IMG/VR virus record: IMGVR_UViG_2541047758_000005
Location: 1-12,059 of that record
Reading direction: 5' to 3' (one strand)
DNA from: a virus
Taxonomy: Duplodnaviria; Heunggongvirae; Uroviricota; Caudoviricetes
Length of the DNA: 12,059 nt
In this document: positions 11,265 through 12,059 of the stretch, one piece after another
How the letters are laid out: every line of letters begins with the position of its first letter
Position numbering within the stretch: the stretch's first letter is position 1
The notes under the pieces: model-generated
What the model saw: the letters and a program-made list of their open reading frames with translations, nothing else
What the model was told of the DNA's origin: nothing
Database searches by the model: none
Program-made: the position numbers and the translations under genes

Positions 11265-12059
11265 CAGAGACACAATGCGAAAAATAATTACTCATTTCAA
11301 AGTTGTTTTAACGTTACTTCTACCAGTAACCGTATCTGCCCAGCAGATACAGTGGCAATCCTGTATGGCCAGTCAATTCAACCACTGGTTTGGTGAGGAA
11401 AAACCGTCTCCTGACTTACTATGTGGTTATTTGTCTGTTCCATTAAAATATACAGACACAGGCGGAGATGCTTCTTATGAAAAAAAATCACAAGTCAAAC
11501 TAGCGTTGACAAAATTGCCGGCAAAAAGCAAGCATAAAGGAAGTATCCTGATAATAAGTGGTGGTCCCGGGTTACCAGGCATAAATCCTTATATTAACTT
11601 TGACTGGCCAGTCACAAATCTTCGTGAGTCATGGGATATTATTGGATTTGATCCTCGAGGCGTCGGACAGTCCACTCCGACAATAAACTGCCGGCAATCA
11701 GATACAGAGACTCAGGAAAACATAACCGAAAAGCAACAAGTATTAAATAAAATTAATGCCTGTATCCATAATACCGGAGCCGAAGTCATTCGCCATATCG
11801 GCTCTAACGAGGCTGTATACGATATTGATCGTATTAGGCAAGCCTTGGGGGATAAGCAACTGACAGCCGTGGCGTATTCGTATGGAACTCAAATTGCAGC
11901 CTTATATGCAGAACGTTTTCCCTACAACGTAAGATCTATCGTTCTTGATGGAGTCGTCGATATCGATGACCTGGAGGACAACTTCACATGGCAACTCAAA
12001 CAGGCACAGAGTTATCAGGAAACGTTTGATCGCTTTGCATCCTGGTGTGCGCGTACAAA
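11265..12059 (+). CDS. Secreted alpha/beta-hydrolase, S33 (prolyl/tripeptidyl aminopeptidase)-like; 5' part only, continues past window end
   Basis: Hand translation from ATG 11265: 265 codons with no stop to the window end (not in the ORF track because it has no stop); signal peptide MRKIITHFKVVLTLLLPVTVSA/QQ; oxyanion-hole-type motif ILIISGGPGLPG and nucleophile-elbow-type motif AYSYGTQ. Confidence 0.8.

Follow-up and report, generated by a model that had tools for sequence, protein, structure and literature searches.

A Predicted Exported Hip1-Like Serine Hydrolase Encoded Downstream of ompT on Mobile Elements of Escherichia coli

Gene Content and Reading Frame

The window analyzed here, a stretch of 12,059 nucleotides covering positions 1 to 12,059 of the IMG/VR virus record IMGVR_UViG_2541047758_000005, contained the outer-membrane protease gene ompT and, directly behind it and in the same orientation, the 5' part of a gene encoding an alpha/beta hydrolase. 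The two genes were located as follows.

10135..11088, + strand: ompT, 317 codons plus stop, from the open reading frame list and labelled ompT in matching records
11275..12059, + strand: 5' part of the hydrolase gene, assigned from its translation, 100% identity to WP_001226382.1, and Pfam; it runs off the window end

As a whole, this gene is best explained as encoding a Sec-exported, disulfide-rich serine hydrolase of the Hip1/tripeptidyl-aminopeptidase (TAP) clade that is carried as mobile cargo beside omptins, a reading to which a probability of roughly 0.8 was given.

The hydrolase frame on the + strand ran without a stop codon for 295 codons, from position 11173 to position 12059, where the window ends, and a run of this length is expected by chance with a probability of about 1e-8 (arithmetic for DNA of about 41% guanine plus cytosine, GC). 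The ATG at 11275-11277 was the first and sole start codon in the frame, which gives a product beginning with MRKIITHF, and 261 full codons plus 2 bases (785 nt) lay inside the window with no defect seen. The resulting 261-residue fragment was 100% identical to residues 1-261 of the 494-residue protein WP_001226382.1. A chance origin of the frame was excluded because of the Pfam match, the complete identity, and the low odds. A first-pass annotation of this DNA had recognized a real open frame that is co-oriented with ompT, but its start at 11265 lies 10 nt early and out of frame, its figure of at least 265 codons exceeds the 261 codons and 2 nt that the window holds, and the gap to ompT is 186 bp and not 176 bp. 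It had rightly placed the stop codon beyond the window end, as complete copies measured 1,485 nt in all comparators examined, and the full gene was retrieved from these comparators (1,485 nt and 494 residues, e.g., WP_001226382.1). Its remark that the protein corresponds to no named E. coli gene also held: the hydrolase has no gene name, and the K-12 chromosome carries an appY cassette in its place. The exact OmpT protein of the window occurred in 26,196 blocks of the index of the searched collection, and the hydrolase had 494 residues in 10 of 10 contexts with this exact OmpT. Judged by these comparisons, window positions 11275-12059 are the start of a genuine 494-codon hydrolase gene that is widespread in E. 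coli and unstudied.

Family Membership and Fold

The hydrolase fragment alone matched Pfam Abhydrolase_1 (PF00561) with an E-value of 6.5e-25 and 88.6 bits. The full-length orthologue matched both PF00561 (E-value 3e-33, 115.9 bits against a cut-off of 25.8) and the TAP-like C-terminal domain Abhydrolase_4 (PF08386; E-value 1.8e-14, 54.1 bits against a cut-off of 21); both scores passed the gathering thresholds, which bears out the initial assignment to the S33-type alpha/beta hydrolases. Among solved relatives, Mycobacterium tuberculosis Hip1/CaeA (Rv2224c) ranked first by sequence, with residues 21-475 aligned at an E-value of 2e-51 (phmmer), and was followed by TnmK1 and TnmK2. An AlphaFold2 model built on 58 homologues had a mean predicted local distance difference test score (pLDDT) of 91.1 and a predicted template modelling score (pTM) of 0.91. 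A Foldseek search of this model against the PDB again placed Hip1 entries at the top, with template modelling (TM) scores of 0.81-0.85 (0.81/0.85 to 8E5W), then TnmK1 and TnmK2, and the next family scored below 0.6. Membership in the prolyl aminopeptidase family (TIGR01249) was rejected, as the match reached 35.8 bits against an NCBIfam cut-off of 259.75 and covered residues 167-263 only.

The sequence and model comparisons place the hydrolase in the Hip1/Streptomyces tripeptidyl-aminopeptidase clade of MEROPS family S33, and the predicted protein agrees with this clade in every respect that can be tested computationally. The RefSeq label of WP_001226382.1 is only "alpha/beta hydrolase," database names are generic, and PHROGs lists the family with unknown function. 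No publication on the gene turned up in full-text literature searches. The hydrolase is an uncharacterized, apparently never named or assayed member of a known family.

Predicted Active Site and Export

Three features of the predicted protein fall inside the window.

11275..11340, + strand: predicted Sec signal peptide of the signal peptidase I (SPase I) type, residues 1-22, MRKIITHFKVVLTLLLPVTVSA followed by QQ, assigned by eye
11560..11571, + strand: GGPG loop, G96-G97-P98-G99, with Gly97 aligned to Hip1 Gly110
11872..11886, + strand: nucleophile elbow, A200-Y201-S202-Y203-G204, aligned to Hip1 GYS228YGT

Alignments of 31 and 58 homologues, which reached down to about 28% identity and included sequences from Enterobacterales, Pseudomonas, Chromobacterium, Nocardia, and Mycobacterium, showed no variation at Ser202-Tyr203-Gly204-Thr205, Asp428, Thr431, His455, and Gly97-Pro98-Gly99. 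The GGPG motif and the A-Y-S-Y-G elbow named in the first-pass annotation were both found, at residues 96-99 and 200-204, with G97-P98-G99 and S202-Y203-G204 invariant in the 58 homologues. The codon of the catalytic Ser202 occupies positions 11878-11880, and this is the only triad residue within the window. The downstream Asp and His, which had been set in advance as a check on the triad, were present in the full-length orthologue as Asp428 and His455 and were, together with Ser202, invariant in the 58 homologues. Ser202, Asp428, and His455 aligned with Hip1 S228, D463, and H490, and Gly97, Tyr203, and Thr431 aligned with Hip1 Gly110, Tyr229, and Thr466. In Hip1 the triad is S228/D463/H490, and five disulfides are predicted for its 11 cysteines (PMC4022732), and inhibitor complexes have shown that its oxyanion hole is formed by the backbone NH groups of Gly110 and Tyr229 (PMC13041806). 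The hydrolase contained ten conserved cysteines (residues 30, 50, 139, 163, 258, 264, 357, 397, 465, and 485), six of which were invariant and four of which were present in 90% or more of the 58 homologues; nine of the ten aligned with Hip1 cysteines and the tenth with that of a mycobacterial homologue. At the mouth of the S1 pocket, 7 of 9 Hip1 residues were identical in the hydrolase (alignment mapped onto PMC13041806).

The N-terminus of the hydrolase consisted of a basic n-region (R2, K3, and K9), a hydrophobic core (V10-V20), and V-S-A before Q23, and the predicted signal peptide lacked a lipobox cysteine. Similarity to mature Hip1 started at residues 21-24, and all homologues had a hydrophobic N-terminus followed by conserved W27/C30. 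The protein had at first been described as secreted. The signal-peptide-like N-terminus is consistent with that description, but the protein is better regarded as predicted to be Sec-exported and, by default, periplasmic, with no indication of passage beyond the outer membrane.

Comparison with Known Systems

Hip1 (PDB 5UGQ, 7SFM, and 8E5W) resembles the hydrolase in full-length homology, fold, triad, GGPG/Tyr oxyanion hole, the Thr after the catalytic Asp, the helical lid, and the matching set of cysteines; it is a cell-envelope serine protease, and the hydrolase is predicted to be exported. On the other hand, the two proteins share only about 27% identity, the host of the hydrolase is Gram-negative and a plain SPase I signal is predicted for it, and Hip1 Glu113 and Arg232 are replaced by Leu100 and Gln206. 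Hip1 cleaves GroEL2, whereas the hydrolase is encoded on phages and plasmids beside an omptin. Hip1 also hydrolyses azocasein, tripeptide-p-nitroanilide substrates, and p-nitrophenyl butyrate (PMC4022732). The Streptomyces lividans peptidases Tap/TPP A, SlpD/TPP B, and SlpE/TPP C have the same Abhydrolase_1 plus Abhydrolase_4 architecture and belong to the same S33 cluster as Hip1, and the "TAP-like" domain Abhydrolase_4 is named after Tap. They are Gram-positive enzymes, secreted or mycelium-bound, that release tripeptides, and the likeness noted here is one of domain architecture.

The closest paralogue was the equally uncharacterized F-plasmid protein WP_072145210.1 (76.4% amino acid identity), which is likewise encoded behind an omptin with the same hairpin, but differs in its location on an IncF plasmid, its 104-bp spacer, and its signal-peptide sequence. 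TnmK1 and TnmK2 (PDB 8E18 and 8G5T) shared the overall fold (TM about 0.79) and were detectable by sequence (E-values of 2.5e-18 and 1.3e-8), but they are enzymes of tiancimycin biosynthesis with 19-22% identity and are more distant than Hip1. No biosynthetic genes were found at the E. coli hydrolase loci inspected. Prolyl aminopeptidase (S33.001) shares with the hydrolase the alpha/beta core around the nucleophile elbow (about 100 residues), but is a cytoplasmic protein of about 310 residues, and its fold had a TM score of 0.34-0.36 to the hydrolase model in Foldseek.

Occurrence on Phages and Plasmids

Among 5,426 complete E. coli genomes, 1,250 contained a match to window positions 11089-12059, with an identity of at least 99% in almost every case, and 1,232 carried the contiguous stretch of ompT plus hydrolase. 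The ompT gene was matched by megablast in 3,108 of these genomes; 1,232 of the 3,108 kept the hydrolase, and about 60% were without it. The 494-residue protein was present in thousands of assemblies. The usual gene order was envY, a 47-bp remnant of the argU attachment site (att), ompT, the hydrolase gene, a tail-fibre-assembly fragment, ybcY, and late phage genes, with int and argU at the far end. Furthermore, 11 complete lambdoid phage records of 45-48 kb contained the hydrolase at 99-100% identity, and the one record inspected, phage PhiR49_1, had the order att, ompT, hydrolase, tfa, and ybcY. Both genes of the pair had a GC content of about 41-42%, and E. coli averages about 51%; the low values are consistent with acquired DNA. 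The hydrolase gene is low-GC accessory cargo at the att-proximal end of DLP12-type lambdoid phages. In K-12 the 1.9-kb hydrolase cassette was replaced by a 1.5-kb appY cassette, and in a B2-like strain ompT and 161 bp of the spacer were followed directly by ybcY, which represents a deletion of the hydrolase.

The gene was also found on plasmids. The F plasmid (NC_002483) contained ompP at 32322-33269 and, after 104 bp, the 495-residue paralogue WP_072145210.1 (33374-34861). A contiguous stretch of ompP plus hydrolase was identified on 156 plasmids, nearly all of which were conjugative IncF plasmids. Both genes are under purifying selection: the ratio of nonsynonymous to synonymous substitution rates ranged from 0.07 to 0.19 among the omptins and was about 0.13 between the hydrolase paralogues.

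A study of uropathogenic E. coli that mapped the surroundings of ompT reported a gene named "ymcE" at a distance of 186 bp after ompT in isolate cystitis 6 (PMC6854850). In MSHS 472, a urine isolate from Montreal with a record description that fits the isolates of that study, the 494-residue hydrolase gene began exactly 186 bp past ompT (gap at 7380-7565 of locus L003). Because the hydrolase sits at the same distance in MSHS 472, the published label may be an annotation slip.

Intergenic Region and Regulation

The region between ompT and the hydrolase gene and the region upstream of ompT contained three features.

11108..11136 (core) and 11099..11141 (extended), + strand: GC-rich hairpin, 20 nt past the ompT stop, followed by AAUUUGUUU
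11137..11274, + strand: AT-rich spacer 5' of the hydrolase start, part of the hydrolase cassette and not of ompT
10035..10051, - strand: perfect PhoP box TGTTTA-N5-TGTTTA with zero mismatches, about 85-100 bp upstream of ompT

The hairpin that had been noticed in the gap on first reading was confirmed, with its core at 11108-11136, a folding energy of -19.5 kcal/mol, and a z-score of -2.75; only 2 of 200 shuffled sequences folded equally well. It was missed by a strict terminator scan that admits only loops of 3-8 nt. The CCCCGG...CCGGGG stem and the U-rich tail were kept in all three intergenic sequences inspected (ompT, ompP, and a third omptin variant), and the hairpin looks like an ompT terminator or attenuator. 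Homology to K-12 reached to a point shortly after the hairpin, about 50 bp past the ompT stop, and set in again at tfaX. Because homology to K-12, which is without the hydrolase, covers the hairpin, this element belongs to the ompT unit, and because it ends about 50 bp past the ompT stop, the spacer at 11137..11274 belongs to the hydrolase cassette. The spacers of the other pairs differed in length (104 bp at the ompP locus and 128 bp in the third variant). At the ompP locus, only about 45 nt separated the hairpin from the hydrolase start codon; this leaves little room for a separate promoter, and read-through into the hydrolase gene is therefore plausible there. A box scan detected no PhoP box between ompT and the hydrolase start, and Rfam gave no match in or near the ompT-hydrolase locus.

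A conserved reverse-strand PhoP site has been reported to be needed for the induction of ompT (bioRxiv 10.1101/2020.02.28.965145), with which the box at 10035..10051 agrees. A second perfect PhoP box was located at 5500-5516 (+ strand), about 53 bp upstream of the prophage gene bor (5569-5862). The prophage-borne envelope genes bor and ompT look, from these predicted sites, to be wired into the PhoPQ regulon of the host.

Proposed Function

According to the proposed mechanism, the hydrolase would be exported by the Sec pathway, with family resemblance pointing to cleavage of the signal peptide after Ala22, and once it is in the periplasm up to five disulfides would arise from its ten conserved cysteines. 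His455 and Asp428 would activate Ser202 for attack on the scissile carbonyl, and the tetrahedral intermediate would be held by the backbone NH groups of Gly97 in the GGPG loop and of Tyr203, beneath a predicted helical lid formed by approximately residues 230-410 over the substrate pocket. Expression would probably depend on a weak promoter of its own or on read-through of the ompT hairpin. The hydrolase would be dispensable for OmpT. By analogy, the substrates are most likely peptides rather than lipids, with the enzyme trimming oligopeptides or carrying out limited endoproteolysis within the cell envelope, because the characterized relatives (Hip1 and Streptomyces TPP A/B/C) are peptidases; this is the weaker part of the proposal.

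Several observations weigh against this reading. The window is without the last 233 codons, including those of Asp428 and His455, and the intactness of the gene in this genome was assumed. The signal peptide was assigned by eye only, and a consensus scan gave no sigma-70 site between ompT and the hydrolase start. The literature search yielded no biochemical, expression, or localization data on the hydrolase or on any Gram-negative member of the clade, and esterases as well as the non-hydrolytic TnmK enzymes share the fold. Moreover, Hip1 Glu113, the key determinant for Lys at P2, to which it makes a salt bridge, corresponds to Leu100 in the hydrolase. Because of this replacement, the substrate specificity of Hip1 is not transferable; in the alignments and the model, family, fold, and chemistry carry over from Hip1 and substrate specificity does not.

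The main rival with regard to substrate, which is possible although it is the less favored choice, assigns the hydrolase to the carboxylesterases, lipases, or lactonases, with small esters or the lipids of envelope or host as its targets. Hip1 was itself first named carboxylesterase A and cleaves p-nitrophenyl butyrate, and the loss of its Lys-binding Glu113 in favor of Leu100 would suit such an activity. Two phage records label the gene "putative lactone hydrolase" and JGI homologues are labelled "pimeloyl-ACP methyl ester carboxylesterase," but these database labels are automatic and generic. The characterized clade members in the cited literature (Hip1 and S. lividans Tap/SlpD/SlpE) are peptidases, and the mouth of the S1 pocket is largely conserved with Hip1, both of which argue for the peptidase.

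Association of the Hydrolase with Omptins

The repeated pairing of the two genes raises the question of whether omptin and hydrolase form a functional two-step module, with cationic host peptides cut by the omptin at the cell surface and the resulting fragments, or another shared substrate, broken down by the hydrolase in the envelope. Adjacency and co-orientation were preserved across four diverged E. coli pair variants on mobile elements. OmpT and OmpP shared 70.8% amino acid identity and their hydrolases 76.4%, which indicates parallel divergence. A third pair, located amid fimbrial and autotransporter genes, was 72.7% (omptin) and 79.0% (hydrolase) identical to the chromosomal proteins, and the pair on the ColV-type plasmid pCys-11 was 90 and 95% identical, respectively. 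The purifying selection on both genes, the 156 plasmids with contiguous ompP and hydrolase, and the gap of about 45 nt between hairpin and start codon at ompP, which suggests read-through expression, point in the same direction, as does a hydrolase variant of 77% identity that lies amid virK/msbB2-type envelope-modification genes.

Nevertheless, such synteny can be explained by the inheritance of one ancestral block, and a terminator-like hairpin is conserved between the omptin and hydrolase genes. The co-occurrence of the two genes was loose, as omptins lacking the hydrolase and hydrolases lacking an omptin both occurred: only 1,232 of the 3,108 ompT-positive genomes retained the hydrolase, K-12 has appY in its place, and the B2-like strain has deleted it. 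The pCys-11 omptin has an internal stop codon and the hydrolase behind it is intact, the 77% variant (L013) has no omptin nearby, and none of the four homologues of about 53% identity examined (on a Salmonella plasmid, on a Serratia plasmid, in Budvicia, and on a further contig) adjoins an omptin. The published arlABC peptide-resistance locus does not include the hydrolase either. A tblastn search of OmpT against the 95 comparison loci gave matches in E. coli loci only. No omptin was found in the 80 loci listed from the genome-collection scan, 78 of which are not from Proteobacteria; the loci listed were almost exclusively from Actinobacteria, so that this is a poor test for Enterobacterales. 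Identity of the hydrolase with ArlB of arlABC was ruled out, as ArlB is described as an NAD-dependent (nicotinamide adenine dinucleotide) epimerase.

The simplest reading traces all pairs to one ancestral omptin-hydrolase block on mobile elements of Escherichia that was passed on as a unit, with selection keeping each gene. Functional cooperation between omptin and hydrolase is possible from the gene arrangement, although a dedicated module is rather unlikely, and the idea that the hydrolase acts on omptin products is speculation. In the most elaborate form of this idea, which is more doubtful still, a PhoP-induced omptin and a periplasmic hydrolase expressed by read-through would constitute a mobile two-compartment proteolysis cassette spread by DLP12-type phages and F/ColV plasmids. 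The omptin would clip cationic host peptides and proteins outside the cell, and the hydrolase would destroy fragments entering the envelope or would process an envelope or host protein as Hip1 does GroEL2, together raising resistance to defence peptides or damping host responses.

The settings of the diverged copies were also recorded. On pCys-11 (NZ_CP041303.1; L010), the omptin gene (4866-5813) and the hydrolase gene (6001-7485) lay near iroN/iroE. The 77% variant (L013, 2469-4055) was in a plasmid-like locus with genes for a DUF535 protein, PerC, a polysaccharide deacetylase, a glycosyltransferase, a sulfatase-family protein, and a lipid A acyltransferase; the DUF535 protein is one that we take to be VirK-type. 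The homologue of about 53% identity on the Salmonella plasmid (L008, 4231-5604) was beside genes for an amidohydrolase and an MrpH-type fimbrial adhesin, and that in Budvicia (L098, 1341-3041) was near genes for an EptA-type phosphoethanolamine transferase and a Fic protein. Both of these homologues lie among surface-related genes.

Mosaic Structure of the Window

The window was composed of two parts that meet at the following position.

9710..9712, no strand: junction between the late region and the att-proximal ompT-hydrolase cargo, from BLAST breakpoints and the mapped att core

Positions 1-9712 consisted of DLP12-type late genes that were 99.98% identical to those of strain E10, including tail-fibre-assembly, portal, and head-tail fragments, an intact terminase, nohD, ylcI, ybcW, ybcV, bor, lysis genes, an intact nmpC-type porin gene, and quuD. 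The left boundary of positions 9710-12059 coincided exactly with the phage-side edge of the 47-bp argU att core that precedes ompT, and comparison of this segment with an intact locus and with phage PhiR49_1 gave 1-2 differing bases. At the junction, the late region was cut inside a gene for a hypothetical protein of 171 residues (context 9449-9760). This junction was absent from the 5,426 complete E. coli genomes, IMG/VR, and the JGI metagenomes; possible origins are secondary-site integration of a second ompT/hydrolase phage into a resident remnant, tandem duplication, or an assembly mis-join.

The mosaic bears on whether the hydrolase frame in this genome is a truncated or rearranged remnant, that is, a pseudogene. 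The left 9.7 kb matched at 99.98% strain E10, which lacks ompT and retains only the final 795 nt of the hydrolase gene; in addition, the junction at 9710 was matched nowhere else in the searched data. However, the 785 nt present were without defect and identical to the intact allele, the right 2,350 nt were 1-2 bases off loci with an intact 494-codon gene, including that of an active phage, and 10 of 10 contexts with this OmpT allele had the full gene, so a remnant is improbable. That the hydrolase is prophage cargo for phage-phage competition (superinfection exclusion or defence) is the least credible alternative, for although the gene lies in the att-proximal moron region of lambdoid phages and matches the PADLOC "TAP-like protein" model C3a206 (E-value 6.5e-57), this match is at family level only (192 bits, comparable to Hip1), the locus shows no further defence component nearby, an exported, disulfide-bonded enzyme is unlikely as an intracellular effector, the gene also occurs on F plasmids beside ompP, and PHROGs lists the family with unknown function. 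Membership in a PADLOC defence system was rejected, with a generic TAP-like match and no partner genes in the locus.

Other observations concerned E10 and the late region. In E10 and similar strains, which are natural ompT-null E. coli, nfrBA-ybcH-envY-ompT has been lost together with the first 690 nt of the hydrolase gene; the 795-nt 3' fragment left behind (L002, 6001-6795 in E10) adjoins a cluster of type VI secretion system (T6SS) Vgr and DcrB-like genes. The window contained an intact gene for an nmpC/OmpD-type porin of 365 residues at 7653-8750 (+ strand), the K-12 copy of which is annotated as a two-fragment pseudogene. An Rfam match to IS009 (RF02111; 218 bits) was located at 39-237 (- strand) in the tail-fibre-assembly region.

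Significance

OmpT and OmpP are among the best-studied outer-membrane proteases of E. coli and are relevant to antimicrobial-peptide resistance and to the degradation of recombinant proteins. An intact, selected Hip1-like hydrolase that is predicted to be exported follows them on active converting phages, ColV-type plasmids, and F. In M. tuberculosis, Hip1 is a drug target and a virulence protease with immunomodulatory effects, and roughly one in four E. coli genomes, those of Shiga toxin-producing E. coli and urinary isolates among them, carries this mobile Gram-negative relative of it. If the hydrolase were merely another periplasmic peptidase or esterase, the result would be an ordinary one, and the loci analyzed so far give no sign of unusual biology. 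The gene is a well-defined target for knockout and enzymology, and its conserved partnership with ompT and ompP, as seen in the sequences, would provide a testable lead.

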